Notes under the pieces: generated by a model
Databases searched by the model: none
What the model was told of the DNA's origin: nothing
The model's input: the letters and a program-made list of their open reading frames with translations, nothing else
Source: Candidatus Nanopelagicales bacterium
GTDB lineage: Bacteria; Actinomycetota; Actinomycetes; S36-B12
DNA length: 64,000 nucleotides
Direction of reading: 5' to 3'
Assembly (NCBI GenBank): GCA_030827125.1
Contig: JAURFD010000003.1
Coordinates: forward strand, 193,607-257,606
Program-made: the position numbers and the translations under genes
Part shown: positions 29,728 to 59,169 of the stretch, piece by piece
How positions within the stretch are numbered: position 1 is the stretch's first letter
Layout of the letters: each line of letters starts with the position of its first letter

Positions 29728-29864
29728 TGATCCTCCCCAGAGGCCACGATCGGTGATGGACCTCGATTGTTGTTGGAATCGTATGGACTTACCTTGGTCG
29801 TTGTCCCGGTCTCCCGGTAACGGATGCGTATCGACGACGATCCTGAGCTCCCACGATGCGGGAA

Positions 29865-31823: not shown

Positions 31824-31838
31824 CGGTCGCCCCTCAGA

Positions 31839-32912
31839 TCAATCGCCAAGTTCCGGCGAGCGCTCGCCCGCGATCAGAGCAAGGACGTCATCGCTCGACA
31901 CATAGCCCACCATCGTGCCCTTCTTCACGACGCGGATCGGCGGGACCGACGAAATGATGACCGGAGTCGCCTCCTTGATGATCATTGCCGCCTCAAGGGT
32001 CGGCCCGTCATCGGCTTCTCCCTCTCGCAGGGGTCGCGCAATCACCTCCAACGTAAGGACGTGACTCTTGGGAATATCGCGCAGGAAGTCGGCAACGTAG
32101 TCATCGACCGGGTTGAGCACGAGATCCATGGCCGTGCCCATCTGGACAATCGCGCCATCGCGCATGATCGCAATGCGATCACCGAGTTTCATCGCCTCAG
32201 CGAGATCGTGAGTGATGAACACCATGGTCTTTCCGAGTTCTTGGTGCAGGCGTTTTACCTCTGCCTGCATGTCGCGTCGAATCAGGGGGTCCAGTGCGCT
32301 GAACGGCTCATCAAGGAACATCACATCGGGATCCACCGCGAGAGCTCGAGCAAGGCCAACACGCTGCTGCATGCCGCCGGACAGCTGCTCAGGGTAGGAG
32401 GATCCGTACCCGGCCAGTCCAACGAGTTGGATGACCTCCTCGGCGCGGGCATAGCGGACATCCTTCTTGACGCCCTGGATCTCCAGTGGGTACGCGATGT
32501 TGTCGATGACCTTGCGGTGCGGCAGCAGCCCGAAGTGCTGGAAGACCATGGAGAACTCGGTGCGGCGCAAGTGCCGCAACTGCTTCTCATTGGCAGCGAG
32601 GATGTCGTCACCCTCGATGAGCACCTCACCTGAGGTGGATTCGATGAGCCGAGTCAGGCAGCGTACAAGGGTCGACTTGCCCGAGCCCGACAGACCCATC
32701 ACGACGAAGACCTCACCATTGTCGACATCGAAGGTGACGTCCCGGACGGCGGCGGTACAGCCAGTTTCGGCGAGGAGCTCGTCCCGGCTGAGATTTGCCA
32801 GCGGTGTGCCCACCACCTTGTCCGCCTGCGGCCCGAAGACCTTCCACAGATTGCGGACGGAAATGGCGGGGCCCGCCCCGGTCGTGGACTCACTCACCAG
32901 GTCCTCCTTCAA
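31839..32912 (-). CDS. opuAA: Betaine/proline ABC transporter ATP-binding protein
   Basis: Walker [10 protein letters not shown], signature LSGGMQQR, Walker [12 protein letters not shown], and a C-terminal regulatory extension. Confidence 0.9.
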
Positions 32913-34398
32913 ACCAGCCGCTGGGAGCAGCGTTCAGGCGTCGATAGACGTGCTTGGCTTCGAGGTACTCGTGGAAGCCTGTGGGTCCGAGTTCGCGGCC
33001 GACCCCGGACTGCTTGAAGCCACCCCATTCAGCCTGCGGGAGATAGGGGTGGAAGTCGTTGATCCAGATGGTTCCGTGGCGCAGCGAAGCGGCCACTCGC
33101 TCGGCCTTGCCCGCGTCATTCGTCCACACCGCGCCGGCAAGTCCATACATGGTGTCGTTGCCCAGAGCGATCGCCTCATCCTCGGTCCTGAACGTCTCCA
33201 CGGTGAGCACCGGCCCGAATGACTCGTCTTGGACGCAGGTCATCTCGGTGCGGCATCCGTCAAGCACGGTGGGACGGTAGTAGTGCCCGTCGGCGAGCGC
33301 GGGGAATTCGATCGAATTGGGACGTTCACCACCGCACCGAAGAACCGCGCCCTCGGCGAGTGCGGACGCCACGTAGGCCTCGATCTTCGCCAGATGCTGC
33401 GCTGAGATGAGCGGACCGGTCTCCGCGGCCTCATCGAACGGGCCGCCCAGTCGGATGCGCTGTGCTCGCCGCACGACCTCATCGACGACGACGTCGTGCA
33501 CCGACTCCTCCACGAGGAGTCGAGCTCCCGCCGAACACACCTGACCGCTATGGAGGAACACGGCCGTGAGCGCGTTGTCGATGGCCGCATCAAGATCGGC
33601 GTCGGCGAAGACGATGTTGGGATTCTTGCCACCGAGTTCGAGTGCGACCTTCTTCACCGTAGCGGCCGCATCGGCCATGATGCGGCGGCCTGTGAGGAGC
33701 CCTCCCGTGAACGACACCATGTCGACATCCGGGTGAGTCGCGAGCGGGGCACCTGCCGTGACGCCCGCCCCGAGGACGAGGTTGCCGACCCCCGGAGGAA
33801 GCCCGGCCTCGGCCAGCAGTGTGACCAGATGGATGGTCGTGCTCGGGGTGAGTTCGCTGGGCTTGAGCACGAAGGTCGTGCCCGCAGCAAGAGCCGGCGC
33901 CACCTTCCAGGCTGCCTGGAGCAGTGGGTAGTTCCAGGGCGTAATCAGGCCACAGACACCGACCGGCGAGTACTCAATCCGCGATCGCACTCCGGGGTCC
34001 GCCACATCCACGACGCGGCCGCCCACGGCATCGCCGCAGGCCAAGCCGGCGAAGTAGCGGAAACAACTCGCGACGTCGGCCACGTCGTAGCGAGACTCGA
34101 CGATGCGCTTGCCCGTGTCGAGCGACTCAAGCCGTGCGATCTCTTCGGTGTCACGCTCCAGCAGATCTGCCACCCGCGCTAGGAGCTGACCACGCTCGGA
34201 GAGCGGGACGGACGACCAGCGGCCGTCGTCAAAGGCCCGGCGGGCTGCCTCGATGGCACGCACCGTGTCGACGCTGGTGGCCTCGTCGACCACGCGGACA
34301 AGGTCGCCGTTGGCCGGGCAACGAATCTCGCGGGTGCCGCCCTCTGCAGCGGTCACCCACTCGCCATCAATGAACAGGTCAGGCATGCGTGTCAGCAT
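32890..34398 (-). CDS. betB: Betaine-aldehyde dehydrogenase (ALDH family)
   Basis: Catalytic Glu LELGGKNP and catalytic Cys GQVCSAG. Overlaps betA at its start and opuAA at its end. Confidence 0.85.
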
Positions 34399-36058
34399 TC
34401 TCGCGACGGCGCCGATAGAACGGCACGTGTTCGGCGGGTAGCGGCGTGTTGCCCTTGATGATGTCGGCCGCCTTCTCCGCCATCATCATCACCGGCGCAT
34501 AGATATTGCCGTTGGTCACATAGGGCATGACGGAGGCGTCGACGACACGCAGACCCGCCGTGCCATGCACCCGCATCGTGAGGGGATCCACGACGGCCAT
34601 GTCATCGATGCCCATCTTGGCCGTGCAGGAAGGGTGATATGCCGTCTCGCCGTCGCGGCGGACCCACTCGAGGATCTCCTCGTCAGAACTCACCTCGTGC
34701 CCTGGTGAGATCTCTCCACCGCTGTACGGTGCGAAGGCGGGCTGCTCAAGAATCTCCCGCGTCTTGCGAATCGCCTCGACCCACTCGCGCCGATCCTGCT
34801 CGGTCGAGAGGTAGTTGAACGTGAAGGCGGGCTCGGCGAAGGGGTCCGGGCTGGTGATCCGCAACGAGCCGCGGGCGTCGGAATACATCGGCCCGACATG
34901 CACCTGGTAGCCGTGTCCCTCCGCGATGGAGGTGCCGTCGTACCGCACCGCGATCGGCAGGAAGTGGTACATGAGGTTGGGGTACTCCACGTCCTCGTTG
35001 CTCCGGATGAAGCCGCCCGCCTCGAAGTGGTTGGACGCGCCCGGACCGGATCGCAGGAACAGCCACTGCGCGCCGATAAAGGGTCGCCGCCAGAACTGCA
35101 GGTTGGGATTCAGCGACACCGGCTGGGTGCAGGCGTGCTGAACATAAACCTCGAGGTGGTCTTGGAGGTTCTCCCCCACTCCCGGCAGGTCGTGGATCGG
35201 ATCGACGCCGACAGCGCGGAGATCATCGGCCGGTCCGATGCCGGACAGTTGCAGGAGCATGGGCGAGTTGAAGGCACCACCGCACAGGATCACCTCGGAA
35301 CCACGTACGGCGATCGGGCGCTTGCCGCCGAGGGCAACTTCGACGCCGCGGGCGGTCGGAGTGCCGCTCGAGGTGTCCATGATGATGCGCGTGACATGCG
35401 CCCGCGTCTTGACGGTGAGGTTGGGCCGCGACATGGCCGGCCTGAGGTATGCCTTGGCGGCTGAGTAGCGACGACCGTTGTGCAAGGTGCCGTCGAAGGC
35501 CGCAAAGCCTTCCTGCTTGTAGCCATTGACGTCGGCCGTGAGTTCATGACCGGCTTCCTGCACGGCTTCAAAGAACGCGGAGAAGAGGGGATTCTCCACC
35601 TTGCCGCGCTCGAGGATCAGCGGACCGTCCTTGCCGCGCCACTCGTCAGCCCCGGCGCGACAGTCCTCCATCTTCTTGAAGTAGGGCAGGCAGTTCGCGT
35701 AGCTCCACGAATCCATGCCCGGGTCAGCGGCCCAGCGTTCGTAGTCCAGCGGATTGCCCCGCTGGAAGATCATCCCGTTGATGCTGCTCGAACCCCCGAG
35801 AACCTTGCCACGGCCGTGATAGACGCGGCGACCGTTCATGAACGGCTCGGGCTGGGACGAGTACATCCAGTCGTAGTACTTGTTGCCGATGGGGAACGTC
35901 AGCGCCGCCGGCATATGGATGTAGACATCAAAGGGATAGTCCGGTCGTCCCGCCTCCAGGACCAAAACCGTGGTGCCCGGGTCCTCTGTGAGCCTCGCGG
36001 CGAGCGCCGAGCCGGCTGAGCCGCCCCCGACAATGATGTAGTCGTATCCCTTCGGCAT
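34379..36058 (-). CDS. betA: Choline dehydrogenase (GMC flavoprotein)
   Basis: [22 protein letters not shown] fold, [18 protein letters not shown], and C-terminal GMC signature with the active-site His region. Confidence 0.88.
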
Positions 36059-36086: not shown

Positions 36087-37526
36087 TCAGTCCCCGAGTT
36101 CCGCACGCCGGCGTACGACGTACTCGTGCAACTCCTCGCGGATCGCCTCATCGAGAGGCGGGGGCTCGTACTCCTCGAGTCGCTTCTCGTAGATCTCGCG
36201 AGCTCGCTCCTCGGTATCGCGTGCCCCGAGTCGAGTCCAGCGCTCAAAGTTGTCGCAGTTCCACAGCCAGGGCCGATAGAAGCAAGTGCGGAACCGCTCC
36301 ATCGTGTGTTCGGCGCCGAGGAAGTGCCCGCCGGAGCCCACCTCCTCATGCGCGCCGAAGGCAAGCTCCTCATCGCTGAAATGCACCGGAGTGAATTCAT
36401 GCTGGAGGGACTCAAGCGCCTGGGTGTCCATGACGTACTTCTCGAAGGAGGAGACGAGTCCACCCTCGAGCCATCCAGCCGCATGCATGACGACATTCGT
36501 GCCAGCGAGGAATGTCGGCAAGAGCGTCATCAGGGTCTCGAATGCCGCCTGCGCGTCGGGCACCTGAGCCGAGTTCATGCCCCCGCCGGTGCGGAACGGC
36601 AGCCCGAAGTGCCGAGCAATCTGGCCGGTGCAGAGCAAGCCGATCGCGGACTCCGGGGTGCCGAACTGCGGAGCCCCTGACTGCATGTCGATATTGGACA
36701 GGAAGGAGCCGAAGACCACCGGCGCACCCGGATTGATCAGTTGCGTCAGAGCGATGCCGGTGAGGGTCTCCGCAATCTGTTGCGCCAGGGTGGCGGGGAT
36801 GGAGACCGGCGACATGGCACCCATGAGGAGGAACGGCGACAAGATGACGGGCTGGCGAGCCCGGGCGTAGGCGAACTGCGCCTCAAGCATGCGGTCGTCC
36901 CAGCGCAGCGGCGAATTGCAGTTGATGAGGGAAATGCAGACCGGGGTCTCCTCGATCGCCTCTCGCCCGCCGAAGAGAATTTCGCTCATGCGAATCGTGT
37001 CTTCTGCGCGTTCCCCGCTGACAACATTTCCCATGTAGAACTTGTCGGTAAGGGTCATGGCGGCATAGAGCATGTCGAGGTGGCGTGAATCCAGCGGCGC
37101 ATCGTTGGGCTCACACACGACGCCGCCCACGCTGTCCATCACGTCGAAGGACTGAGCGAGCTTCGCGAAGTCGCGGAAGTCCTCCATCGTGCCGTCGGCT
37201 CGCCGGTCTCCACGCCGGACGAACGGAGGGCCGTAAACGCTCGAGAACACCATGCTGTCGCCACCGACATGCACACTGCGCTCCGGGTTGCGCGCCTGGA
37301 GGTCGAATTCGCGCGGAGCCTTCGCGACCTGCTCAAGGACGAACTCAGGATCGAAGAAGACCTTGTCGCCGTCAGTGCGCATTCCCGCAGCGGCAAAAAT
37401 TTGCACCGCCTCCGGTGCCATGAACTCGACGCCGAGTTCGGACACAATGCGTCGCCATCCACGATCGAGGACAGCCATGGAGTCCTCGGAGAGGATCTCG
37501 TAGCGGGGCATGGTGTTCCGGAACAT
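36087..37526 (-). CDS. MttB-superfamily (trimethylamine methyltransferase family) substrate:corrinoid methyltransferase, non-pyrrolysine, MtgB-like
   Basis: Uninterrupted 479-aa ORF with no in-frame TAG. Family-typical length and sequence blocks (LINCNSPLRWD, GAMSPVS, GWLEGGL). GAGGAG RBS 7 nt upstream. First gene of the bet/opu operon. Confidence 0.88.
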   Translation of the reverse strand: MFRNTMPRYEILSEDSMAVLDRGWRRIVSELGVEFMAPEAVQIFAAAGMRTDGDKVFFDPEFVLEQVAKAPREFDLQARNPERSVHVGGDSMVFSSVYGPPFVRRGDRRADGTMEDFRDFAKLAQSFDVMDSVGGVVCEPNDAPLDSRHLDMLYAAMTLTDKFYMGNVVSGERAEDTIRMSEILFGGREAIEETPVCISLINCNSPLRWDDRMLEAQFAYARARQPVILSPFLLMGAMSPVSIPATLAQQIAETLTGIALTQLINPGAPVVFGSFLSNIDMQSGAPQFGTPESAIGLLCTGQIARHFGLPFRTGGGMNSAQVPDAQAAFETLMTLLPTFLAGTNVVMHAAGWLEGGLVSSFEKYVMDTQALESLQHEFTPVHFSDEELAFGAHEEVGSGGHFLGAEHTMERFRTCFYRPWLWNCDNFERWTRLGARDTEERAREIYEKRLEEYEPPPLDEAIREELHEYVVRRRAELGD

Positions 37527-37584: not shown

Positions 37585-37602
37585 ATGGAATACTGCTTCC
37601 AT
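37585..37602. promoter_or_regulatory. Candidate operator: perfect inverted repeat ATGGAA-N6-TTCCAT
   Basis: Sits centrally in the 130-bp divergent mttB/iclR intergenic region, the most AT-rich stretch I noticed in the window. It overlaps TANNNT-type -10 candidates on both strands. Confidence 0.4.
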
Positions 37603-37656: not shown

Positions 37657-38442
37657 GTGGCAAGCCCCACGGGTACGCAGGCGGTCGATCGGGCCGGTTC
37701 GCTGCTCGTCTACGTGCTCGCGGCCAGCGAGCCCGTGCCGTTCGGCGAACTCGTCATCGCCACCGAGTTGCCCAAGAGCACCCTGTCTCGGCTGCTGTCG
37801 AGTCTGGAGCGCAACGGGCTCGTACAACGGACGACCACCGGTGCCGTTCAGCCCGGTCCACGTATCACCGACTACGCGCTCTCCGTGCGACCCGAGGACG
37901 ATCTCATCCGAATCGCGCAGCCCTACCTCGACGAGCTTGGCGCGCTGACCGGTGAGACCGTCAACCTCGCCGTCGCGGTCGGCAGCGAGGTGCGTCAGAT
38001 CGCCCAGGTTGACTCGACGTACCTACTCGGTGCCGTGAACTGGATGGATCGGCCCGTCCCCTTCCACTGCAGCGCGCTCGGACGGGCTCTCATTGCCTTC
38101 GGCGGCACCCTGCCGCGCGGTCGGCTCAAGGCCTTCACCGATACCACCATCACATCGCGGCGGATGCTGGATACCGAACTTGAGCGAGTACGCCGGACAC
38201 GGATCTCGATCGTCGACTCCGAGCTCGAGCCAGGCCTGGTGGCGGTCGCCGCACCGATTCTCAACGGAGAGCGCATCGCGATCGCTGCGGTCAGCGTCTC
38301 CGGTCCCAGCGTGCGCATGACGCCGGAGCAGATAGCCTCCGTCGCTGACGCGGTCACGCTCACTGCCCAGGGCATCAGCGATGCCGTTCGCCTGAACACT
38401 CGCCCCTCGTCACCCCTTCCCGGAAAGGCTGGAGCCGCATGA
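37657..38442 (+). CDS. IclR-family transcriptional regulator
   Basis: 261 aa. N-terminal wHTH (AVDRAGSLLVYV...FGELVIATELPKSTLSRLLSSLERNGLV) plus a C-terminal effector domain. Its stop overlaps the next ATG (ATGA). Confidence 0.85.
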   Translation: MASPTGTQAVDRAGSLLVYVLAASEPVPFGELVIATELPKSTLSRLLSSLERNGLVQRTTTGAVQPGPRITDYALSVRPEDDLIRIAQPYLDELGALTGETVNLAVAVGSEVRQIAQVDSTYLLGAVNWMDRPVPFHCSALGRALIAFGGTLPRGRLKAFTDTTITSRRMLDTELERVRRTRISIVDSELEPGLVAVAAPILNGERIAIAAVSVSGPSVRMTPEQIASVADAVTLTAQGISDAVRLNTRPSSPLPGKAGAA

Positions 38443-39095
38443 CCAACGACGAGATCCTCAAGGGCCTCTACGACGAGACCATGGTCGGCAACAAGCCGGC
38501 CGTGGTCGAGTTGACCCAGCAAGGTCTTGACTCAGGCCTCACTCCCGAGCAGCTGCTCTTCGAGGCTCTCATCCCATCACTGGAAGAGGTGGGGGCTCGC
38601 TTCGAGCGCGGGGACTGGTTCGTGCCGGAGATGCTCATCGCCGGCAAGGCGATGTCGGCCGCGCTGGATCTGCTCCGGCCGCTGCTGGCGCAGACCGGTG
38701 TGGAGAGCGTCGGCACCTTCCTCATGGGCACCGTGAAGGGTGATGTGCACGACATCGGCAAGAACCTCGTCAACATCATGCTCGAGGGCGCGGGCTTCAC
38801 GGTCATCGACCTCGGAGTCCAGGTGCCGCCGGAGAAGTTCGTCGCGGCGATCGAGGAGCACAAGCCCGACATTGTCGGGATGTCCGCGTTCCTCACCACG
38901 ACGATGCCGATGTTCAAGGCGAACATCAACGCGATCGAGAAAGCCGGACTACGTGACTCCGTTGTCATCATGGTCGGTGGGGCGCCCGTCACCCAGGAGT
39001 ACGCCGACGTCTGCGGCGCCGATGGCTACGCCGCAGATGCCGCGACCGCCGTCCGAAAGGCCAAGGAGTTCGTCGTCGCGAAGCGAGCTGGCTAG
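38439..39095 (+). CDS. Cobalamin-binding corrinoid protein (B12-binding cap plus Rossmann domain)
   Basis: 218 aa. DxHxxG = DVHDIGKN, SxL = SAFL, GG = VGGAPV. Confidence 0.9.
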   Translation: MTNDEILKGLYDETMVGNKPAVVELTQQGLDSGLTPEQLLFEALIPSLEEVGARFERGDWFVPEMLIAGKAMSAALDLLRPLLAQTGVESVGTFLMGTVKGDVHDIGKNLVNIMLEGAGFTVIDLGVQVPPEKFVAAIEEHKPDIVGMSAFLTTTMPMFKANINAIEKAGLRDSVVIMVGGAPVTQEYADVCGADGYAADAATAVRKAKEFVVAKRAG

Positions 39096-39098
39096 CTC

Positions 39099-39551
39099 AT
39101 GAAGCGCCTCATCCCCCTCTTCGAGCACGCGGTCAAAAAGCCCGTGTGGGACTGCCGCATGTGTGGCCAGTGCGTTCTGCACTCGACGGGGATGACGTGC
39201 CCAATGACGTGCCCCAAGACCTTGCGCAACGGGCCCTGCGGCGGAGTACGCGAGGACGGTGGCTGTGAGGTCAAGCCGGAGATGACGTGCGTATGGCTCA
39301 AGGCCGAGCGCCGCAGCCACTCCCCGATCAATCCCGGCCGCTGGGAGGCGGAACTCAATCACCTGCGCCCTCCGGTCAACAATCAGCTCAAGGACACCTC
39401 CTCCTGGATCAACCTCCTCTCCGGGGCCGACCGTCGCGCACCCGCGGGTTGGACCGGGGAGATTGTCGAAGACTCCGCGGACCTCCTCGTAGGAGCAGCG
39501 CTCGTCGAGATCGACGATCCATCGTCCCTCCCGGAAGGCTTCCATTCATGA
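39099..39551 (+). CDS. MTHFR C-terminal-domain protein (MetV-like Cys-rich small subunit)
   Basis: 150 aa with 8 Cys in the first ~75 residues (CRMCGQCV...CPMTCPKTLRNGPCGG...CEVKPEMTC). Its stop overlaps the metF ATG (ATGA). Confidence 0.7.
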   Translation: MKRLIPLFEHAVKKPVWDCRMCGQCVLHSTGMTCPMTCPKTLRNGPCGGVREDGGCEVKPEMTCVWLKAERRSHSPINPGRWEAELNHLRPPVNNQLKDTSSWINLLSGADRRAPAGWTGEIVEDSADLLVGAALVEIDDPSSLPEGFHS

Positions 39552-40495
39552 GCCGCCTATCCGAGTTGCTCGCCAGCGGTACACGTCCGGTGGTCACCGC
39601 CGAGTTCCCGAGCATCGACGGTGGTGGCCTCGCCGCTGTCGAGCGGGCCGTCGCCGACCTCAAGCCGTATGTGGATGCGGTCAACGCCACGGACAACCCG
39701 GCGGCGCATGCGCATGCGTCGAATACGTCGATCGCCATTGCTATGCATCAGTTCGGCCTCGAACCGGTCCTGCAGGTGGTCTGCCGAGACAAGAACCGCC
39801 TCGCGATGCAGGCCGACATCATGGGCGCGGCCCTGCACGGCGTGGAGAACGTTGCCCTACTGACCGGAGACGATGTCACCGCCGGCGACGAGCCGGAGGC
39901 TCGGCGAGTATTCGATCTCGACAGCATCCAGATGGTCAAGGTCGCCGGCGGTCTCGCCGAAGGGCACTACCTCTCAGGAAGGGCCATCAAGGAGCCCCCC
40001 ACACTCTTTATCGGCGCCGTTGAGAATCCGTTCGCGCCGCCCCTGGGCTATCGGGTCGAGCGGGCGAAGAAGAAGGCCGACGCAGGGGCCCGATTCCTCC
40101 AATTGCAGATCGGCTACCACCCCGACCGCCTCGAAGACTTCGTGCGCGGCTGCGTGGAGATGGGCGTCGCCGAGACGACCGCGCTACTCCCGACCATCGT
40201 TCTCACCAAGACCGGACGAGCCCTGTCCTTTATGAACGACTCTGTCCCGGGCATATCTATCCCGCAAGCCACCATCGATCGCGTGGCCGGCGCCGGTGAC
40301 AAGGAAGCGGTCGCGGAGGCCTCCTACGAGGTGACTGTCGAACTCGCCCAGCACGCCCTATCCCTGCCTGGCGTCTCCGGGCTGCACATCACTGACTTCC
40401 GCCATGACGGCAGCCTCGCTCGACTCGTTGAGGACCTGCGCATCGGCCCATCACAGATCAAGGAGCAGCATGCACACCGTCCTCAGCTCGTCTAG
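39548..40495 (+). CDS. metF: Methylenetetrahydrofolate reductase (MetF family)
   Basis: 315 aa, TIM-barrel MTHFR blocks (VNATDNP, VCRDKNR, LLTGDD, GAVENPF, FLQLQIGY). The track ORF is extended 261 nt upstream. Confidence 0.85.
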   Translation: MSRLSELLASGTRPVVTAEFPSIDGGGLAAVERAVADLKPYVDAVNATDNPAAHAHASNTSIAIAMHQFGLEPVLQVVCRDKNRLAMQADIMGAALHGVENVALLTGDDVTAGDEPEARRVFDLDSIQMVKVAGGLAEGHYLSGRAIKEPPTLFIGAVENPFAPPLGYRVERAKKKADAGARFLQLQIGYHPDRLEDFVRGCVEMGVAETTALLPTIVLTKTGRALSFMNDSVPGISIPQATIDRVAGAGDKEAVAEASYEVTVELAQHALSLPGVSGLHITDFRHDGSLARLVEDLRIGPSQIKEQHAHRPQLV

Positions 40496-41333
40496 CGCGT
40501 CCATAACGATCGGCCCCGATCAGCCGTTCTGCATCATCGGCGAGCGCATCAACCCCACCGGGCGCAAGAAGTTCCAGGAGGAACTTCGCGCCAACGACCT
40601 GAGTTCGGTCGAGGTCGACGTGGCCCAGCAGATCGCCGGAGGTGCCATGATGCTCGACGTCAACATGGGCGCCCCGCTCGTCGACGAGGCCAGGCTCCTC
40701 GGCGAAGCCGTGACGCTGGTGCAGTCGCTCACCGATGTGCCCCTGTGCATTGACTCCTCCGTCGTCGAAGCCCTCGAGGCCGGCCTCGCTGCCTACCAGG
40801 GCAAGGCGCTCGTGAACTCGGTCACCATGGAGCGCGAGCGCATCGACCTCATCCTGCCGCTGGTCAAGCGGTACGGCGCCGCGGTGATCGCCCTGCCCAA
40901 CGACGAGGAGGCCATCCCGGAGGATCCGCATCGCCGCCTCGAGTTGGCGAAGCAACTCGTCGGCATCGCCACGGATGAATTCGGTATTCCCATCGAAGAC
41001 ATCGTGGTCGATCCACTAGCGATGCCCGTGGGTGCTGATCACACTCTTGCCCTGAAGACGATGGAGGCCATCCACCTCATCTCCACGGAGATCGGCGTCA
41101 ACACGACGCTCGGCGCCTCCAATGTGTCCTTCGGCATGCCGGACCGCCACACGCTCAATGCCGTGTTCCTCCCCATGGCCATTCAGGCGGGCCTCACGTC
41201 CGCCATTATGGACGCGCGCACAGACCAGATCGTGACAGCGGTGAAGGGGGCCGACCTCATGCGCGGCAATGACGAATGGGGGGCCACCTGGATCTCGCGC
41301 CACCGGGCGAAGCAGGCGGCCGCCGGCGGATGA
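40470..41333 (+). CDS. Methyl-THF:corrinoid methyltransferase (pterin-binding domain, MtgA/AcsE/MetH-like)
   Basis: IIGERINPTGRKKF, LDVNMG, LCIDSS, ALVNSV and GASNVSFG blocks. ATG at 40470 is preceded by AAGGAG and overlaps the metF end by 26 nt. Confidence 0.85.
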   Translation: MHTVLSSSSASITIGPDQPFCIIGERINPTGRKKFQEELRANDLSSVEVDVAQQIAGGAMMLDVNMGAPLVDEARLLGEAVTLVQSLTDVPLCIDSSVVEALEAGLAAYQGKALVNSVTMERERIDLILPLVKRYGAAVIALPNDEEAIPEDPHRRLELAKQLVGIATDEFGIPIEDIVVDPLAMPVGADHTLALKTMEAIHLISTEIGVNTTLGASNVSFGMPDRHTLNAVFLPMAIQAGLTSAIMDARTDQIVTAVKGADLMRGNDEWGATWISRHRAKQAAAGG

Positions 41334-43186
41334 CAGCTTCGCATCACGACGACCTACCCGCCCGGATCACGCTGCGCTACGAACCGGCGGGCAAGTCGGT
41401 TCGTGTCCCCAACGGCGTTAGCGTCTTCGACGCGGCACTGTGGAATGGCGTCGCGGTGGACTCCACCTGCGGTGGGCACGGAACCTGCCGCAAGTGCAAG
41501 GTACGGATCGTCGATTCCGAGACGCCTGTCGCTGCGGCCGACGAGCGCGCCTTCACCCCCGAGCAGTTGGCTGACGGTTGGCGGCTGGCCTGTCTGACCA
41601 CCGCGCATCACGATCTCGTCATTGACGTCCCTGAACTCACCACTCGGCCCAAGGCAGCCACCGTCGGCGTCGGCCGACAGGTCATCCTGCGGCCCGCCGT
41701 ACAAAAGCGCTTCCTCGAGTTGGACGAGCCCACGCTCGCCGATCAACGCACCGACATCCAACGCGTGCGCGACGCCATGGACGACCTCGAGCTCGCCGTC
41801 GATATCGAGGTGTTGCGAACGCTCGGTCGAGATCTGCGCGCGGCGAATTGGGCAGTCACCGCCGTCGTCGTCGGGACGCACCTCGTCGCCCTGGAGGCCG
41901 GCGACACCACCGACCGGCGGTTCGGCGTCGCCATCGACCTTGGCACCACCACGGCCGTAGCGACTCTCATGGATCTGTCCACCGGGGCACCCGTGGCCGT
42001 GTCATCGATGCTCAACCGCCAGCAGCCGTTCGGAGCCGACGTCATCAGTCGCATCAGTGCCACCATGCTCGATCCCGAAGCCCTCGGCCGGCTTCGCGAC
42101 CTCGCGCAGTCGACACTGGCCGATCTCACGGTCGACGTCCTCGTCGAGGCGCGCGTCACCCCCGACGAGGTGTACGAGGTGGCGCTCGCTGGCAACGCCA
42201 CCATGATGCAACTGCTCCTCGGGATCGATCCTGAGCCGCTGGGCGTGGCCCCTTTCATCCTGGCCAGCGCCCACTTCGAAGGCCTGCGGGCCGCAGACCT
42301 CGGCGTACCGATTCATCCGCGGGCGCGAGCAACGGTCTTCCCTGCGCTGGGCGCCTACGTGGGAGGCGACATCGTCGCCGGGGCACTCGCCGCAGGGATG
42401 GATCGCGACAAGCGACTGCGCCTGTTCATCGACATCGGGACGAACTGCGAAATCATCCTCGCCGACGGTGAGCGCCTCGTGTGCACGGCGGCGCCGGCCG
42501 GACCGGCGTTCGAGGCCGCATCCATCTCCAGCGGCATGCGCGCTGCGCCCGGTGCTATCGAGGTCGTGACGATCGACGACGAGGGACTGCATCTCGAGGT
42601 CATCGGTGGCGAGGCACCCGTCGGCCTATGCGGATCGGGCCTGGTCGACGTGGTCGCCGAGCTCGCGCGCGTCGGCTGCATCGATCCCTCCGGGCGCTTC
42701 CTCAGCGATGAGCGGCTCGCCGAGGTGCATCCGGCCCTTGCTCCGCGCTTCATCAATCGTGACGGCGAACGCGTCTTCGTTCTCGCCACAGCTGAGGAGT
42801 CCGGCGACGGCAGTCAAGTGGTCCTGAGTCAGCGGGACGTGCGGGAACTGCAGTTTGCCAAGGCCGCGATCTCCACCGGTTGGCGCTTGCTCGCAGAGGA
42901 AATTGGCGTTGAGGCCAACGACATCCAGCAGGTACTCCTGGCCGGATCCTTCGGCACGTACCTCTCGGCCAAGAGTGCGATCACCATCGGCCTGGTGCCC
43001 AAGATCCCGGCAGCGCGCATCGTCAGCGCGGGGAATGTCGCCGGCGAGGGCGCGAAGATGGCGTTGCTGTCCGAACCGGAGCGGCACGGTGCGCTCGCTC
43101 TCATCGACGAGATCGACTACGTCGAGTTATCTGACCGCACCGACTTCAACGATCGGTTCGTCGATGAGCTCGCCTTCCCCGTCTGA
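41330..43186 (+). CDS. Corrinoid reductive activase (N-terminal 2Fe-2S ferredoxin plus ASKHA ATPase, RamA/RACo-like)
   Basis: CGGHGTCRKCKV..C ferredoxin motif followed by a ~500-aa ASKHA-type domain (DLGTTT, DIGTNCE). ATG overlaps the preceding TGA. Confidence 0.85.
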   Translation: MTASHHDDLPARITLRYEPAGKSVRVPNGVSVFDAALWNGVAVDSTCGGHGTCRKCKVRIVDSETPVAAADERAFTPEQLADGWRLACLTTAHHDLVIDVPELTTRPKAATVGVGRQVILRPAVQKRFLELDEPTLADQRTDIQRVRDAMDDLELAVDIEVLRTLGRDLRAANWAVTAVVVGTHLVALEAGDTTDRRFGVAIDLGTTTAVATLMDLSTGAPVAVSSMLNRQQPFGADVISRISATMLDPEALGRLRDLAQSTLADLTVDVLVEARVTPDEVYEVALAGNATMMQLLLGIDPEPLGVAPFILASAHFEGLRAADLGVPIHPRARATVFPALGAYVGGDIVAGALAAGMDRDKRLRLFIDIGTNCEIILADGERLVCTAAPAGPAFEAASISSGMRAAPGAIEVVTIDDEGLHLEVIGGEAPVGLCGSGLVDVVAELARVGCIDPSGRFLSDERLAEVHPALAPRFINRDGERVFVLATAEESGDGSQVVLSQRDVRELQFAKAAISTGWRLLAEEIGVEANDIQQVLLAGSFGTYLSAKSAITIGLVPKIPAARIVSAGNVAGEGAKMALLSEPERHGALALIDEIDYVELSDRTDFNDRFVDELAFPV

Positions 43187-43778
43187 GAGCCGACCGCGAG
43201 CGCACGCGTCGCGCGCCATCATCACCTGCGGCGCCATCGGGCGCGAGGCCCTGGACTGGGCAGCGGGTCAGGACGTTGCGGTTTATCCACTCCCCCCGGT
43301 CATGCACAACCATCCCGAACAGATCGCGCCCGCCGTCGAGGCCGAGATCATCCGACTGCGCGACCTACATGACGAGATCGCTATCGCGTACGCCGACTGC
43401 GGAACCTACGGCGCCCTCGATGAGGTGTGCACTCGGCACGGAATCACGCGCCTACCCGAACGGCACTGCTACGACCTGCTGTCGACACCCGACGCGCTGG
43501 ACGCGCAGTGGGCCGCCGAGCCCGGCACCTTCGTGCTCATCGACTTCACCGTGGTGGCCTTCGACCGGATGATTTGGCGCGAACTCGGACTTGATCGCCA
43601 TCCGGAACTTCGCGACGACTACTTCGGCCACTTCACCAAGGTCGTCTGGCTGGCGGGTCGGCGTACCCCCGAGATGGAGCGGGCAGCCCACCGGGCGGCG
43701 GAGCGCCTCGAACTCCCGCTGGAGATCTGGCCGGTCGGGGCCGCCCTGGACAACCACCTGACCGAGTTGTTCACCTGA
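43164..43778 (+). CDS. DUF1638-domain protein (function unknown; family assignment from memory)
   Basis: About 204 aa. Last gene of the corrinoid operon, overlapping the activase end by 23 nt. Start choice is uncertain. Confidence 0.65.
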   Translation: MSSPSPSESRPRAHASRAIITCGAIGREALDWAAGQDVAVYPLPPVMHNHPEQIAPAVEAEIIRLRDLHDEIAIAYADCGTYGALDEVCTRHGITRLPERHCYDLLSTPDALDAQWAAEPGTFVLIDFTVVAFDRMIWRELGLDRHPELRDDYFGHFTKVVWLAGRRTPEMERAAHRAAERLELPLEIWPVGAALDNHLTELFT

Positions 43779-43875: not shown

Positions 43876-44550
43876 ATGTCCGTGACGGCCATTCCCCTCG
43901 TTCAACCCGACCTCGCCGAAGGGGCCTCCCAGGCGGATCGGGCCTACCAGGAGATCCGCGCGCTCATCGTCACCGGCGAACTCGGCCCCGGCTCGTTGAT
44001 CAGCGAACCGGACCTCCAAGGGCAACTTGGTCTGGGCCGCACCCCGATTCGCGAGGCCCTGCGCACCCTCGCGCATGAGCGACTCGTCGAGGTCTACCCC
44101 CGCCGCGGCATGTTCGTTGCCGCACTCGATCCGCGCGACCTTTCGGCCCTGTCCGAGGTCCGTGAGGAGAGTGAGCCCTTCGCGGCCCGCCTCGCCGCCG
44201 AACGACGCACCGAGGAAGACCTAGCCGAGATCGAGCAACTCCTGCTCACCATCGACGTCATGGCGTCCGCGCCCGACGCGCGCGGTCTCATCGAACTTGA
44301 CCAGCGCATCCACCATCAGGTCTACCGGTGGGCGCACAACGACTTCCTGCAAGCCGTATGCGCCCAGCACTACATGCACGCACTGCGCATTTGGTTCCTC
44401 GCGCTCGACCGCGTGCCCAATCTCAACGAGGCGGTCACCGAACATCGCGACCTCCTCCTTGCCATCCGCGACGGCGACCCCGAAGTCGCCGCCGAAGTCA
44501 TGTCCCGCCACGTGCGCGGATTCGAAGCAGAGATCCGCCGCGCCATCTGA
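43876..44550 (+). CDS. GntR-family regulator (FadR/FCD subfamily)
   Basis: wHTH SEPDLQGQLGLGRTPIREALRTLAHERLV plus an all-helical C-terminal FCD-like domain. Confidence 0.85.
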   Translation: MSVTAIPLVQPDLAEGASQADRAYQEIRALIVTGELGPGSLISEPDLQGQLGLGRTPIREALRTLAHERLVEVYPRRGMFVAALDPRDLSALSEVREESEPFAARLAAERRTEEDLAEIEQLLLTIDVMASAPDARGLIELDQRIHHQVYRWAHNDFLQAVCAQHYMHALRIWFLALDRVPNLNEAVTEHRDLLLAIRDGDPEVAAEVMSRHVRGFEAEIRRAI

Positions 44551-44589
44551 AACCACCGCACAACCCGAGTGACAACGAAAGAGGAAGCA

Positions 44590-47097
44590 ATGAGCAGTCT
44601 CCCGAGCAAAGCCAAGTGCGTCGTCATCGGCGCCGGCATTGTGGGCAACTCGATGGTCTACCACCTGGCGCGTCTGGGCTGGACCGACATCGTCCAGATC
44701 GACAAGGGTCCGCTGCCCAACCCGGGCGGCTCCACCGGTCACGCGTCGAACTTCATCTTCCTCGTCGATCACAACAAGGAGATGGCCCAGCTCACCCTGG
44801 ACAGCCTTCGCCAATACATCGAACTCGACACCTTCTTCGAGTCCGGTGGCATTGAGGTGGCCCGCACCGCCGAGCGCATGCAGGAGTTGAACCGCCGCGT
44901 GACCTCCGGCAAGTCCTGGGGCGTCGATGGCATGGCCATTTTGACCCCCGATGAGGTCAAGGGGATGGTGCCCTTCATCGATGAAAGCGTCATCCTGGGC
45001 GGCTTCTACACCAAGGGTGTCGGAGTCTGCGATTCATTGCGCGCAGGCACGCTCATGCGAGAGAAGGCCATTGAGATGGGGGCCCTGCAGTCCTTCGCGA
45101 ATGTCGAGGTCAAGGACCTCACGGTCGAAGATGGCCACATCAAGGCCGTGGTCACCGATCAGGGCACCATCGAGGCCGACTACGTCGTCATCGCGACCGG
45201 CTGCTGGAGCCGCCAACTTGCCGCCATGGCCGGGGCCAACATCCCGCTCACCCCTGCCGTTCACCAGATGAAGGACATCGGACCCGTAGCGATGTTCGCC
45301 GACGCCAAGGGTGACCTCGAATACCCGATCGTCCGCGACATGGACACCAACATGTACGAGCGTCAGCACGGCACCGGCCTGGAGATCGGCTCCTACGCCC
45401 ACCGACCGATCCTGTACGACGCCGAGGAGATCCCTTCGAACGCCGAGGCTGCCCTCTCCCCCACCGAGTTCCCGTTCACCCCCGACGACTTCGCCGACCA
45501 GGACGAGCACGCCCTTGAGCTCATGCCCGAAATCGTCGGCGACGAGGGCGCCCAGGAGAAGTACGCCATCAACGGCCTGCTCTCCCTCACCCCGGACGGC
45601 ATGCCGATCCTTGGCGAGACCCCGGAGGTCAAGGGTCTGTGGTCCGCCGCCGCCGTGTGGGTCAAGGAGGGCCCGGGTGTCGGTCGTGCGCTGGCGGAGT
45701 GGATGGTCCTCGGTGAGCCCGAGATCGACCTGCACGCCTCCGATATCGCCCGCTTCTACCCCGAGCAGACCACGACCAAGCACATCAAGGATCGTGCGAA
45801 CGAGGGCTTCAACAAGACCTACGGCATCGTCCACCCGGCCGAGCAGTGGTCCTCGAACCGTGGCGTGCGCAAATCGCCGTACTACGACCGCGAGGCCGAC
45901 CTCGGCGCTGTCTTCTACGAGACCGTGCTGTGGGAGCGTCCTTTCTGGTATGCGTCCAACGCCGGCCTAGTGGAGAAGTACGGCGACGCCGTGATGCCAC
46001 GCACCGCCGAGTGGGAGTCGCGCTGGTGGTCGCCGATCATCAACGCCGAGCACCTGCAGATGCGCGAGACGGCCGGTTTGGTCGACCTCACGGCCTTCGC
46101 CCTCTTCGACATCACCGGCCCCGGCGCCCTGGCGACCGTCCAAGGCGTGTGCATGCGGCAGATGGATGTCGCCGTCGGCAAGGTCGTTTACACCCCCGTC
46201 CTGCTGCCCAGCGGCGGGTGGCGCTCTGACCTCACCGTCATGCGGTTGGGCGAAGACCACTTCCGCGTCGTCACCGGTGGCGCGCACGGCATGTCGGACT
46301 TCAAGTGGTTCAAGGACCACGCGGCCGAGGGCGCGACGTTCACCAACCTCACCGACGACATCTCCACCCTCGGTGTCTGGGGCCCGAACGCCCGCGCCAT
46401 CGTGTCCGCGGTGACCGACGCCGACATGAGCAACGAAGGCTTCCCCTTCGGCACCTGCCGCGAGATCACCATCGCTGGCAAATCCGTCCTCGCCTCGCGC
46501 ATCTCCTACGTCGGTGACCTCGGTTGGGAGCTCTACGTCTCCATGGCCGACGGTCCGGCGGTGTGGGACGCCATCTGGGCGGCGGGTCAAGAGCACGGCC
46601 TCATCCCCGTCGGCATCGGCGTGTACGGCACGACCGGTCGCCTGGAGAAGGCCTACCGCGCGTACGGACCCGAACTCGAGGGCGACTTCAACGTCATCGA
46701 GGCTGGCATGGCCACCAAGAAGGTCAAGGACGCCGACTTCGTCGGCAAGGAGTCCTACCTGCGTCACCGCGAAGAGGAGCCCGCAGCGACGCTGTGCGTT
46801 CTCACCGTCGATGACCACACCTCCTCGACAGGCGAGAAGCGCTACATGATGGGTGGTGAGCCGATCCTCACGCTCGAGGGCGAGTCGATCGTCGATCCGC
46901 ATGGCCGTATCTCGTACGTCACCTCCGCTGGCTCGGCCCCATCGGTCGGCAAGCACATCCTGATGACGTACCTCCCTGCCGAATACTCCACACCCGGCAC
47001 CAAGTTGGCTGTGGAGTACCTCGGCGAGCAGTACCCGGTGACCGTAACCGGCTCCGGCGCACTCTTCGACCCGAACAACGAACGGATCTTGTCGTAA
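44590..47097 (+). CDS. Dimethylglycine/sarcosine dehydrogenase-family enzyme (FAD oxidoreductase fused to a GcvT-like folate-binding domain)
   Basis: VVIGAGIVGNS FAD fold and GGSTGHA (covalent-FAD His region). C-terminal aminomethyltransferase-type domain. ATG at 44590 follows GAAAGAGGAAG. Confidence 0.88.
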   Translation: MSSLPSKAKCVVIGAGIVGNSMVYHLARLGWTDIVQIDKGPLPNPGGSTGHASNFIFLVDHNKEMAQLTLDSLRQYIELDTFFESGGIEVARTAERMQELNRRVTSGKSWGVDGMAILTPDEVKGMVPFIDESVILGGFYTKGVGVCDSLRAGTLMREKAIEMGALQSFANVEVKDLTVEDGHIKAVVTDQGTIEADYVVIATGCWSRQLAAMAGANIPLTPAVHQMKDIGPVAMFADAKGDLEYPIVRDMDTNMYERQHGTGLEIGSYAHRPILYDAEEIPSNAEAALSPTEFPFTPDDFADQDEHALELMPEIVGDEGAQEKYAINGLLSLTPDGMPILGETPEVKGLWSAAAVWVKEGPGVGRALAEWMVLGEPEIDLHASDIARFYPEQTTTKHIKDRANEGFNKTYGIVHPAEQWSSNRGVRKSPYYDREADLGAVFYETVLWERPFWYASNAGLVEKYGDAVMPRTAEWESRWWSPIINAEHLQMRETAGLVDLTAFALFDITGPGALATVQGVCMRQMDVAVGKVVYTPVLLPSGGWRSDLTVMRLGEDHFRVVTGGAHGMSDFKWFKDHAAEGATFTNLTDDISTLGVWGPNARAIVSAVTDADMSNEGFPFGTCREITIAGKSVLASRISYVGDLGWELYVSMADGPAVWDAIWAAGQEHGLIPVGIGVYGTTGRLEKAYRAYGPELEGDFNVIEAGMATKKVKDADFVGKESYLRHREEEPAATLCVLTVDDHTSSTGEKRYMMGGEPILTLEGESIVDPHGRISYVTSAGSAPSVGKHILMTYLPAEYSTPGTKLAVEYLGEQYPVTVTGSGALFDPNNERILS

Positions 47098-47861
47098 TGG
47101 ATATCGCTGTCTGCATCAAGCGCGTACCCCTATCGCCGGGGCGGTGGACCCTCACCGCCGACGGCACCGAGATCGATACCAGCAGCAGTGCGATGGGCTG
47201 GACACTCAGCCCGCACGAGGAATGCGCCACAGAGGCCGCCGTCCAGCTCAAGGAGACGGACGGTGGCACCGTGACGGCATTCACTCTCGGCACACCGGAG
47301 TCCAGCGAGCAGATCCGCGAACTTATGGCGGTCGGCGTGGACCGCGGCGTACTGCTCGAGACCGACGGCGCCGAGTGGGATGCCCAGGCCACGGCCGCGG
47401 CACTCGCCGAGGCGATCCGCGCCGACGAGACCGACTTCTCGGCTGTCATCTTGGGCACTGAGTCGGCCGACGTCTCTGGCTATCAGGTGGGTGTGCGACT
47501 CGCCCACGCGCTTGGCTGGCCCATCGTCACCAACGTCAAGGGCCTGTCGGTGAGCAACGGCGTCGCTCGATGCGAGCGCGTCGTCGGCTCCGAGCGCGAG
47601 GTCTACGAGGTCTCCCTGCCCGCGGTCATCGCGGTCAAGGACGGCGTCAACATCCCGCGTTATCCGTCGGTGCCGGGCCGCATCAAGGCGCGCAAGAAGC
47701 CCATCGACACCGCGAACCCGACCCGCTCGGATCCACGCGTGGAGAAGGTGAGCCTGGCCCTCCCGCCGCAGGAGGCGGGCACCGCCGAGATCATCGGCAA
47801 CGGTCCGGACGCGGCTCCCCGCGTCGTGGAAATTCTCAAAGAGATCGGAGTGCTCGCATGA
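47097..47861 (+). CDS. etfB: Electron transfer flavoprotein beta subunit
   Basis: MDIAVCIKRVP start. ATG overlaps the dehydrogenase TAA by 1 nt (TAATG). Confidence 0.9.
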   Translation: MDIAVCIKRVPLSPGRWTLTADGTEIDTSSSAMGWTLSPHEECATEAAVQLKETDGGTVTAFTLGTPESSEQIRELMAVGVDRGVLLETDGAEWDAQATAAALAEAIRADETDFSAVILGTESADVSGYQVGVRLAHALGWPIVTNVKGLSVSNGVARCERVVGSEREVYEVSLPAVIAVKDGVNIPRYPSVPGRIKARKKPIDTANPTRSDPRVEKVSLALPPQEAGTAEIIGNGPDAAPRVVEILKEIGVLA

Positions 47862-48817: not shown

Positions 48818-48819
48818 AC

Positions 48820-58636: not shown

Positions 58637-59169
58637 GCGCTCACCGCCGCTCGCACCGAGTCAACCGTGCATCGACCGCGCAACCGTCCATTGATCATCG
58701 CTGCCGGACCGAGCGCGCAGTCACCAAGACAGAACACCTCACTGATTTCGACGTCGCCGTTCGTTTCCCCCATGCGTACGCCGTATGCGTCCTCGACCGC
58801 GGCGACCAACTCGCGCGAACCCTGCGCCTGACACGCTTCTGCCACGCACAGCGCGATCACGGTCTGCGGGGGCGGGGTACGCCGGAGGTCGTGATAGTAG
58901 GTGAGGACTCCATAGACCTCAGCGCGAGTCACGTTCAACGTGTCCGCGATGAGGTCGAGCGACTCGTCGGGGACATAGCCGAACGTCTCTTGCAGGACTT
59001 GAAGAGCGGGGAGCACCAGGCGTTGGTGGGGCGCGAGCGCTGTGAGCACGACCTGCGCCTGCGATGCCGACCAGGGGGCGTGACCGGACACGGGCACTGC
59101 TCCTTCGCGAAGACGGCGGATGGCATCAGCAACTGCTGCGATGTCCTCTAAGGGTAGGCGACACGGCAC
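58633..59169 (-). CDS. fdsG: Formate dehydrogenase gamma subunit (NuoE-like 2Fe-2S)
   Basis: CVAEACQAQG...CLGDCALGPA cluster motif. I chose the GTG at 59169; the track ORF extension to 59445 overlaps the fdhD region. Confidence 0.78.
   Translation of the reverse strand: MPCRLPLEDIAAVADAIRRLREGAVPVSGHAPWSASQAQVVLTALAPHQRLVLPALQVLQETFGYVPDESLDLIADTLNVTRAEVYGVLTYYHDLRRTPPPQTVIALCVAEACQAQGSRELVAAVEDAYGVRMGETNGDVEISEVFCLGDCALGPAAMINGRLRGRCTVDSVRAAVSA

Follow-up and report, generated by a model that had tools for sequence, protein, structure and literature searches.

An acetogen-type MetV-MetF pair with a minimal cysteine-rich subunit in aerobic betaine-demethylation operons: a probable oxidative methylenetetrahydrofolate reductase

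Glycine betaine is a major osmolyte and a source of both carbon and nitrogen. Its corrinoid-dependent demethylation in aerobes was recognised only in 2025, and every methyl group taken in this way lands on tetrahydrofolate (THF) and must be oxidised, which raises the question of which enzyme carries out the oxidation and where the electrons go. The question is posed by a stretch of 64,000 nucleotides, referred to here as the window, from a Candidatus Nanopelagicales bacterium of the Actinomycetota (GCA_030827125.1, contig JAURFD010000003.1, positions 193,607 to 257,606), in which a small cysteine-rich protein, MetV, and a methylenetetrahydrofolate reductase (MTHFR), MetF, are encoded side by side in an operon for methyl-group catabolism. 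The reading favoured here, to which we assign a probability of roughly 0.65, is that the two proteins form a MetVF-type MTHFR which, as a fixed module of the aerobic betaine-demethylation operon, would oxidise methyl-THF (CH3-THF) and hand the electrons to an external acceptor. The enzyme proposed for this oxidation is an Fe-S MTHFR of acetogen type, whose physiological partner has been debated for decades.

The first step is to establish what the pair is. The metV gene (39099..39551, forward strand) encodes 150 amino acids and the metF gene (39548..40495, forward strand) encodes 315, and the two are coupled by an ATGA overlap in which the TGA of metV (39549-39551) overlaps the ATG of metF (39548-39550). 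The small protein carries eight cysteines, at residues 19, 22, 25, 34, 38, 47, 56 and 64, in the motifs CRMCGQCV, CPMTCP, NGPCGG and CEV..TC. It matches the Pfam family PF12225/DUF5981, the 'MTHFR C-terminal' or MetV domain (E 9.5e-24), with a core over residues ~8-118 followed by a lineage-specific C-terminal tail, and would be the Fe-S electron-transfer subunit; the larger protein, the catalytic (flavin) subunit of acetogen type, matches the MTHFR family PF02219 (E 6.5e-23). An earlier reading of the same DNA, the original prediction, had described an eight-cysteine protein of 150 residues coupled through ATGA to a MetF of 315 residues, had named the pair a MetV/MetF-type MTHFR and had placed it inside a methyl-donor catabolic operon. 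All three points are borne out: the first by translation of the open reading frames (ORFs), the motifs and Pfam, the second by Pfam and similarity to acetogen proteins, and the third by the position of the pair directly between the genes for a corrinoid protein and a methyl-THF:corrinoid methyltransferase. The pair is a genuine two-subunit MetVF-type MTHFR.

Gene fusions bear on whether the two proteins work together. All ten of the long database representatives of 442-482 amino acids are single-chain MetV-MetF fusions, and the reverse order, a MetF-MetV fusion, occurs on an Acinetobacter plasmid; these fusions strongly indicate a physical partnership between the minimal MetV core and MetF. 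Among 20 long MetV-containing representatives, 17 combine MetV with an at least weak MetF match, three contain the MetV domain as their only one of the two, and one of the 20 also has FG-GAP repeats. Apparent fusions of MetV to a corrinoid protein (P0122) and to the corrinoid activase RACo (P0261) have truncated domains as well as segments that look out of frame, and most likely reflect frameshifts in the gene calls. The reverse fusion, a protein of 464 amino acids, is encoded at 7906-9300 of the plasmid locus from Acinetobacter lwoffii (L083), where it adjoins queH near a methionine synthase gene, a context unrelated to betaine; the plasmids concerned are mobilizable.

MetV is the unusual half of the pair. 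Its match to the acetogen MetV covers the C-terminal half of that protein, at 39% identity (E 6e-13) and with all eight cysteines kept, and the N-terminal domain of the acetogen protein (~130 residues, with five further cysteines) is absent. The type II MetVF enzymes of acetogens have a full-length MetV of ~200-225 amino acids, and the window protein starts at the core. Across 64 MetV homologues seven of the cysteines are invariant and C34 is conserved in at least 90%, while all eight are invariant across Actinomycetota, Alpha- and Gammaproteobacteria and one acetogen. Judged by sequence, then, the window protein appears to be a stripped-down MetV, consisting of the eight-cysteine PF12225 core and a lineage-specific tail, and by analogy this core would suffice for two [4Fe-4S] clusters. 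The tail itself (39400-39548, residues ~120-150) has the motif (S/A)L-x-E-x-DD-x3-L-x2-GFH, which is kept solely in the subgroup of ~150-residue MetV proteins nearest to that of the window and is missing from the forms of 120-130 residues.

The catalytic subunit points to the same source. MetF is 32% identical to the MetF of the acetogen Acetoanaerobium noterae over 274 residues (E 3e-41), the gene for which sits in a Wood-Ljungdahl cluster composed of fhs, fchA, metV, metF and lpdA, and a BLASTP comparison with E. coli MetF gave no significant similarity (E 0.03); the window MetF would thus belong to the acetogen clade, not to the E. coli clade. In a multiple alignment the conserved catalytic and flavin/folate-site residues E19, D108, K176, Q187 and H280 correspond to E28, D120, K172, Q183 and H273 of the E. 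coli enzyme, and the first four are invariant across eight diverse sequences. Where E. coli MetF contacts its flavin adenine dinucleotide (FAD), residues N46, D49, Q76, T106 and D123 are common to the window protein and the acetogen and alphaproteobacterial MetF, and K176 together with A179-G180-A181 is shared with the acetogen MetF that binds flavin mononucleotide (FMN). An AlphaFold model built with 48 homologues has a mean predicted local distance difference score (pLDDT) of 89.8 and a predicted template modelling score (pTM) of 0.89. When it was compared with the PDB by Foldseek, the 50 matches listed were all flavin MTHFRs (TM 0.62-0.75), with neither Mer nor the flavin-independent mycobacterial enzyme (Mfr) among them, and a PDB sequence search with MetF likewise gave no Mfr or Mer match at E<1. 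An argument against NADH use from loss of the NADH/folate-stacking phenylalanine (F223 in E. coli) was rejected, as the window protein has F228 no more than one alignment position away. Annotation pipelines label this metF as an NAD(P)H reductase, for instance "methylenetetrahydrofolate reductase (NADPH)", a label that is probably wrong in both cofactor and direction for these genes.

Is the arrangement peculiar to one genome? A database search that reached saturation returned more than 7,900 MetV homologues, mostly from uncultured Actinomycetota, and relatives were confirmed in at least 585 species-representative genomes, numbers well outside what chance would give. Linkage was counted by mapping the window genes onto the 80 best related Actinomycetota loci. 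The genes that occur there together with metV are those for the corrinoid protein (75 loci), MetF (72), an IclR-family regulator (70), the methyl-THF:corrinoid methyltransferase (69) and the methyltransferase MttB (64); RACo (54 loci) and DUF1638 (44) are lower, both counts being limited by contig ends. The gene order is always the same. MttB | IclR-CorP-MetV-MetF-MtgA-RACo-DUF1638 is therefore a conserved cassette, found in ~70 of the 80 related loci and not peculiar to the window. Sinorhizobium meliloti and Paracoccus aminovorans have the same gene set, again with translational coupling of MetV to MetF, and the alphaproteobacterial MetV family is equally large. The cassette spans two phyla and hundreds of genomes.

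In the window the cassette is built around an operon of seven genes (37657-43778) whose starts and stops overlap or nearly abut. All are on the forward strand. The first gene encodes the IclR-family regulator (37657..38442; conserved in 70 of the 80 loci) and is coupled by ATGA to the gene for an MtgC-like corrinoid (B12-binding) protein (38439..39095; PF02607 and PF02310), for which the highest-scoring NCBIfam model, that of the glycine betaine-specific corrinoid protein MtgC, stays below its cutoff. The metV-metF pair follows, and the end of metF is overlapped by 26 nt by the start of the gene for the pterin-binding, MtgA/MtgD-like methyl-THF:corrinoid methyltransferase (40470..41333; PF00809; NF005719 at 311 bits against a cutoff of 259). 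A further ATGA overlap leads into the gene for a RACo/RamA-like ATP-dependent corrinoid reductive activase with an N-terminal [2Fe-2S] domain (41330..43186; PF00111, PF17650, PF17651 and PF14574), and the last gene, called in an identical contig, encodes a DUF1638 protein (43302..43778, alternative start 43164; PF07796). DUF1638 has been linked genetically to B12 reactivation in Phaeobacter (Price 2018, PMC5764234).

The likely methyl donor is indicated by the gene that diverges from the operon, which encodes an uninterrupted, non-pyrrolysine MttB-family methyltransferase of 479 amino acids (36087..37526, reverse strand; PF06253, E 5.6e-192), a putative MtgB-like glycine betaine:corrinoid methyltransferase. 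It is closer to MtgB of D. hafniense (E 1e-119) than to the pyrrolysine enzyme Pyl-MttB (E 5e-40). The betaine-binding residues of MtgB are known from crystallography to be Y97, R312, H348 and F356 (PMC13080624), and three of the four are kept in the window protein (Y98, R312, H348), F356 being replaced by a glycine that is also present in the S. meliloti homologue 4yyc. Glycine betaine is favoured as the methyl donor on account of the context, which comprises the uptake system OpuA, BetAB and a dimethylglycine dehydrogenase. The genes for betaine/choline uptake and choline-to-betaine conversion (OpuAC, permease, ATPase, the aldehyde dehydrogenase BetB and the GMC oxidoreductase BetA) occupy 28693..36058 on the reverse strand. 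Downstream of the operon a forward-strand unit (43876..50487) encodes a GntR regulator, a dimethylglycine dehydrogenase-like protein (DAO and GCV_T domains), the electron transfer flavoprotein (ETF) subunits EtfB and EtfA, and formate-THF ligase (FTHFS). About 14 kb downstream of the pair lies the end of the C1 oxidation route, an NAD-type formate dehydrogenase region (54285..60052) composed of a molybdopterin alpha subunit (54285-57335), a NuoF-like beta subunit (57089-58636) and a NuoE-like gamma subunit with a long N-terminal extension (58633-59445), all on the reverse strand, and FdhD (59120-60052, forward strand). In 5-8 other actinobacterial loci the formate dehydrogenase trio again follows the betaine cassette at a distance of a few kb, and in several of these it adjoins formate-THF ligase. 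Taken together, the window holds most of a route from choline and betaine to CO2, in which MetV/MetF sits at the only step able to join CH3-THF to the remaining C1 metabolism; FolD was not seen in the window.

How would such a route run? MtgB would demethylate betaine and load the methyl group onto the corrinoid protein, the pterin-binding methyltransferase would pass it on to THF, and MetVF would oxidise the resulting CH3-THF to methylene-THF (CH2-THF), a direction that we infer; the C1 unit could then proceed to formyl-THF, to formate through FTHFS and to CO2 through formate dehydrogenase, or be drawn into biosynthesis. The electrons would move from the flavin of MetF to the clusters of MetV and from there to an acceptor outside the complex, probably one that takes single electrons. 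Of the two directions, oxidation makes the most sense and seems well supported by context. It is suggested by the catabolic setting of the operon, as betaine demethylation would otherwise trap THF in the form of CH3-THF, and by the company of betaine uptake, BetAB, dimethylglycine dehydrogenase, FTHFS and formate dehydrogenase in the same window. A further argument comes from a second apparent context for the same MTHFR module: in Nocardiopsis rhodophaea (L048, 5651-11408), Lipingzhangella rawalii and one metagenome-assembled genome (the latter two being L069 and L071), MetV-MetF occurs without corrinoid genes, and its divergent neighbour is a DmdA-like GcvT-family protein. The best match of this neighbour is the model for dimethylsulfoniopropionate demethylase (334-337 bits, below the cutoff of 410), and the best-matching family yields CH3-THF, which again argues for oxidation. 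These loci also carry a dimethylglycine-dehydrogenase-like gene and, judged by ORF size and weak similarity, apparent sarcosine-oxidase-type genes, and purU is present in one of them, the metagenome-assembled genome (L071).

A physiological hint comes from Ruegeria pomeroyi. On betaine, choline and carnitine no protein of this organism is induced more strongly than MetF2 (SPO1862), whose gene adjoins that of MtgD, and the canonical MetF falls, a pattern that argues for oxidation here as well; Mausz et al. 2025 proposed that MetF2 oxidises CH3-THF (PMC12478193). The original prediction of an MTHFR running oxidatively thus stands as far as the catabolic context and this published proposal carry it, the direction itself being drawn from context. 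Neither MetV nor the electron path enters that paper ('MetV' and 'electron' occur 0 times each), although an uncharacterised protein, SPO1861, encoded just upstream of MetF2, is also induced (PMC12478193); from synteny, SPO1861 is probably a MetV homologue.

The same organism also offers a case for the opposite direction, in which the pair would make CH3-THF for methionine and, with the same corrinoid protein and methyltransferase, act as a split methionine synthase. Ruegeria depends on its corrinoid protein and MtgD to make methionine as well as to demethylate betaine (PMC12478193), and the pipeline label of an NAD(P)H reductase fits such a role. On betaine, however, it is MetF2 that rises in Ruegeria and the canonical MetF that goes down (PMC12478193), a homocysteine methyltransferase (MtgE/PF02574) was not found among the operon genes or the larger window ORFs scanned, the operon is embedded in betaine catabolism, and betaine demethylation would flood the cell with CH3-THF and so require a sink. 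An anabolic, reductive role is thus quite improbable.

If CH3-THF is oxidised, what takes the electrons? The thermodynamic argument of the original prediction, that this oxidation is uphill with NAD+, was judged sound. Its statement that the operon encodes no NAD(P)H-binding, Hdr/Mvh or RnfC-like partner holds for 37657-43778 and also for the downstream unit to 50487, with the qualifier that the NuoF-/NuoE-like subunits of the NAD-linked formate dehydrogenase are encoded outside the operon, at 57089-59445. Its premise that acetogen MetFV enzymes need extra subunits does not apply to all of them, as the type II forms consist of MetV and MetF only; these heterodimers make no use of NAD(P)H and accept reduced ferredoxin in vitro, their physiological partner being unknown (PMC8760232). 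The cassette genes of the operon include no dedicated acceptor gene. RnfC2 or HdrABC/MvhD was not found next to metVF in the operon or in the 80 related loci, which are thus devoid of the dedicated NADH-oxidising subunits of the type III (RnfC2) and type IV (Hdr-MetFV) enzymes; unbiased clustering of the neighbouring ORFs of the related loci gave no conserved redox gene beyond the formate dehydrogenase trio, and a motif scan found no stand-alone ferredoxin in the window.

Two neighbours seen in other genomes were considered as partners and set aside. A 234-residue 'ferredoxin' is encoded downstream of mttB in S. meliloti (L081, 1624-2328, reverse strand) and Paracoccus (L082, 4545-5252, reverse strand), the two being 51% identical; it has a C-terminal cysteine pattern like that of 2x[4Fe-4S] proteins and no Pfam match. 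It was rejected as a general partner, having no homologue in the window or the 80 actinobacterial loci, and could be a proteobacterial electron carrier of the betaine system. The second is a 'Virulence_fact' (PF13769) protein of ~100 amino acids. In S. meliloti its gene precedes that of MetV and is translationally coupled to it (L081, 8481-8783); the protein is fused to MetV in a database entry (P0291) and has a homologue directly after RACo in a Thermoleophilia locus (L045, ~14055-14345). It contains no redox-capable cysteines and occurs in only three actinobacterial loci, and was rejected as a redox partner.

The nearest acceptor named in the original prediction was the ETF pair, to which MetV would pass the CH3-THF electrons on their way to the respiratory chain. 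Its position (47097-48817) is confirmed, 6.6 kb downstream, and ETF genes are present in 17 of the 80 related loci. Thermodynamically the transfer would be favourable, the potential of the CH2/CH3-THF couple being about -200 mV and that of ETF much higher. The genes follow a different client, however. ETF comes directly after dimethylglycine dehydrogenase in 16 of the 16 loci with room for it and never appears without that gene, and it is present in just 9 of the 31 MetVF loci with ~10 kb on both sides; no ETF lies near the three Nocardiopsis-type MetVF loci or in the three proteobacterial regions. Dimethylglycine dehydrogenases are classical ETF clients, which fully explains the presence of ETF, so that proximity is no evidence for a link to MetVF; ETF as the acceptor, though thermodynamically attractive, is rather unlikely.

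NAD+ could be reached either directly or through the NuoF/NuoE-type diaphorase of the formate dehydrogenase, the uphill step being pulled by downstream C1 oxidation. Genes for the NuoF- and NuoE-like proteins are at hand in the window, the trio recurs near the cassette elsewhere, and RnfC2, the NADH module of the type III enzymes, is an analogous NADH-binding module with FMN and Fe-S; moreover, the type III enzyme of Acetobacterium woodii oxidises methyl-THF with NAD+ when methylene-THF dehydrogenase pulls (PMC8760232). Against this, the two window proteins are encoded outside the operon and are most simply read as beta and gamma subunits that belong to an NAD-dependent formate dehydrogenase, one that has an FdhD of its own; a fusion of MetV to an NADH-binding domain is found in none of the 20 long representatives checked, and no purified type II MetVF uses NAD(P)H (PMC8760232). 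NAD+ as the acceptor is accordingly unlikely.

RACo is the only other redox protein of the operon, and MetVF might mainly feed CH3-THF electrons through MetV to its [2Fe-2S] cluster (with DUF1638), which would keep the cobalt as Co(I) in an oxic cell without a dedicated low-potential donor. MetV-MetF, RACo and DUF1638 are co-transcribed in both phyla, MetV stands beside the corrinoid protein without MetF in five genomes, and the RACo cluster, at about -200 mV, has nearly the same potential as the methyl/methylene-THF couple. Yet corrinoid reactivation is only occasional, whereas two electrons have to be disposed of for each methyl group; MetVF also accompanies a DmdA-like demethylase where corrinoid and RACo genes are missing, and the apparent fusions with the corrinoid protein and RACo look like frameshifted gene calls. 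This scheme is highly improbable as the main fate of the electrons.

F420, the more speculative alternative of the original prediction, requires that the organism make it, and it does appear to: the window carries, at 22594-27508, a biosynthesis unit with a fused CofG/H-type FbiC, CofD and an FbiB with a nitroreductase domain. These genes form a separate housekeeping unit ~12 kb away, divided from the betaine island by unrelated genes. The same MetVF cassette is found in Alphaproteobacteria, which generally lack F420, the F420-dependent Mer belongs to a different family with nothing Mer-like among the 50 Foldseek matches listed, and MetF keeps the acetogen-type flavin-site signature. The genes are thus where they were said to be, but a link between them and the pair is barely credible.

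There remain as candidates a carrier encoded elsewhere, ETF, menaquinone, NAD+ via a NuoF-type module and, for a minor share of the electrons, the RACo [2Fe-2S] cluster. A tentative proposal, which we regard as possible and no stronger, is that the minimal MetVF of aerobes acts as a methyl-THF dehydrogenase that feeds the respiratory chain by way of a carrier of higher potential, for instance ETF, menaquinone or a small protein.

Several observations weigh against the view of the pair as an Fe-S flavoenzyme that oxidises CH3-THF. Its flavin and Fe-S content is deduced from acetogen enzymes with a larger MetV of 13 cysteines, and individual cysteines may bind either a cluster or Zn. The AlphaFold model of MetV is of low confidence (mean pLDDT 62, and below 50 at residues 34-46 in the Cys-rich stretch), and comparison of MetV with solved structures, by single-sequence and profile search, found no structure of any MetV and gave chance matches only (rubredoxin and ATP synthase b). 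Poor AlphaFold models are common for cofactor-dependent folds; nevertheless, because the model is poor, especially in the Cys-rich stretch, we can only infer that MetV binds clusters. In five related genomes (L012, L014, L015, L017 and L018) MetV lies between the corrinoid protein and the methyltransferase with no MetF, RACo or DUF1638 within 10 kb. The order in this subclade is corrinoid protein, MetV (~10001-10459 in L012, L015 and L017) and methyltransferase, followed by GntR, dimethylglycine dehydrogenase and ETF, and either MetV may have a role beyond MetF or the genes for MetF, RACo and DUF1638 may have been relocated. Finally, in Ruegeria the corrinoid and methyltransferase components work in both directions (PMC12478193), leaving room for a reductive role.

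Some features of the surroundings deserve mention. The divergent mttB/iclR intergenic region contains the perfect palindrome ATGGAA-N6-TTCCAT (ATGGAATACTGCTTCCAT, 37585..37602, no strand assigned), which adjoins a promoter-like site at 37550-37578, and eight other loci have an exact ATGGAA-N6-TTCCAT in the corresponding place, ~1.5 kb upstream of MetV; the palindrome is probably the IclR operator. The window has a G+C content of 66%, and BetA, the dimethylglycine dehydrogenase/ETF system and the NAD-type formate dehydrogenase would fit a respiratory lifestyle. The nearest genomes are those of uncultured Actinomycetota, several apparently from lake or river samples. A 100% identical MetF in the same gene order is present on 49.7-kb 'crustacean metagenome' contigs (ENA ERZ922563 and ERZ922591; L086/L087; PRJNA309119), which suggests that the source organism is associated with a crustacean.

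The idea of an oxidative MetF2 has already been published for Proteobacteria (PMC12478193). What appears to be new with respect to the literature searched, in which no description of MetV, PF12225 or DUF5981 in aerobes was found, is that the aerobic betaine MTHFR carries a minimal, predicted Fe-S MetV, and does so across Actinomycetota. This minimal form is built into the operon in at least several hundred aerobic Actinomycetota species genomes, in Rhizobiales and in Paracoccus, and would fill a gap in the energetics of betaine use by aerobes. The chief value of the finding is that tractable aerobes such as Sinorhizobium, Paracoccus and Nocardiopsis become available for the search for the MetVF partner. 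If the tentative proposal of a methyl-THF dehydrogenase feeding the respiratory chain is true, methyl groups from osmolytes would enter respiration at a point not recognised before, and, as the enzyme core is the same, a partner found in aerobes would also answer the question of the type II MetVF in acetogens.

It is instructive to set the pair beside the known systems. E. coli-type MetF is used oxidatively in aerobes, as in ligM-metF of Sphingobium and cmu-metF2 of Methylobacterium, and in these, as in the window, an MTHFR gene beside a CH3-THF-producing demethylase in an aerobe is read as oxidative; they are, however, single-subunit FAD enzymes without MetV, whereas the window MetF has no significant similarity to that of E. 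coli. The flavin-independent mycobacterial Mfr and the F420-dependent Mer (PMC11094777) are, like the window MetF, actinobacterial or TIM-barrel methylene-pterin reductases, but the window protein differs in keeping the residues of the FMN-binding acetogen MetF. The type III RnfC2-MetVF of A. woodii, which shares the MetVF core, runs oxidatively on methyl donors, pulled by the next enzyme (PMC8760232), and differs in having a dedicated NADH-binding RnfC2 beside metVF, a gene with no counterpart in the window operon.

The aerobic MtgBCD system of Ruegeria and S. meliloti shares with the window a non-pyrrolysine MttB, a corrinoid protein, a MetF beside a pterin-binding methyltransferase, a RamA-like activase and DUF1638, and oxidation of CH3-THF is likewise the role proposed for its MetF2; the clusters of S. 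meliloti and Paracoccus also have a MetV coupled to MetF. The alphaproteobacterial MetV has a Cys-free N-terminal extension of 75 amino acids, whereas the actinobacterial form is marked by its C-terminal tail and by another order of the genes, and the coupled 'Virulence_fact' protein belongs to the S. meliloti cluster and is not annotated in Paracoccus.

In its enzyme core, the window protein pair resembles the type II MetVF known from Clostridium ljungdahlii, C. formicoaceticum, Eubacterium callanderi and Thermoanaerobacter kivui, acetogen enzymes that have FMN in MetF, about two [4Fe-4S] clusters in MetV and activity with ferredoxin or viologens (PMC8760232). It departs from these enzymes in lacking the ~130-residue N-terminal domain of MetV with its five cysteines, in its setting in an aerobic-type actinobacterium and a betaine operon instead of a Wood-Ljungdahl cluster, in the oxidative direction suggested by context, and in cofactors that are predicted. 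It agrees with them in the adjacency of metV and metF, in having no rnfC2 or hdr/mvhD neighbour, in the clade of its MetF and in the same eight-cysteine PF12225 core.

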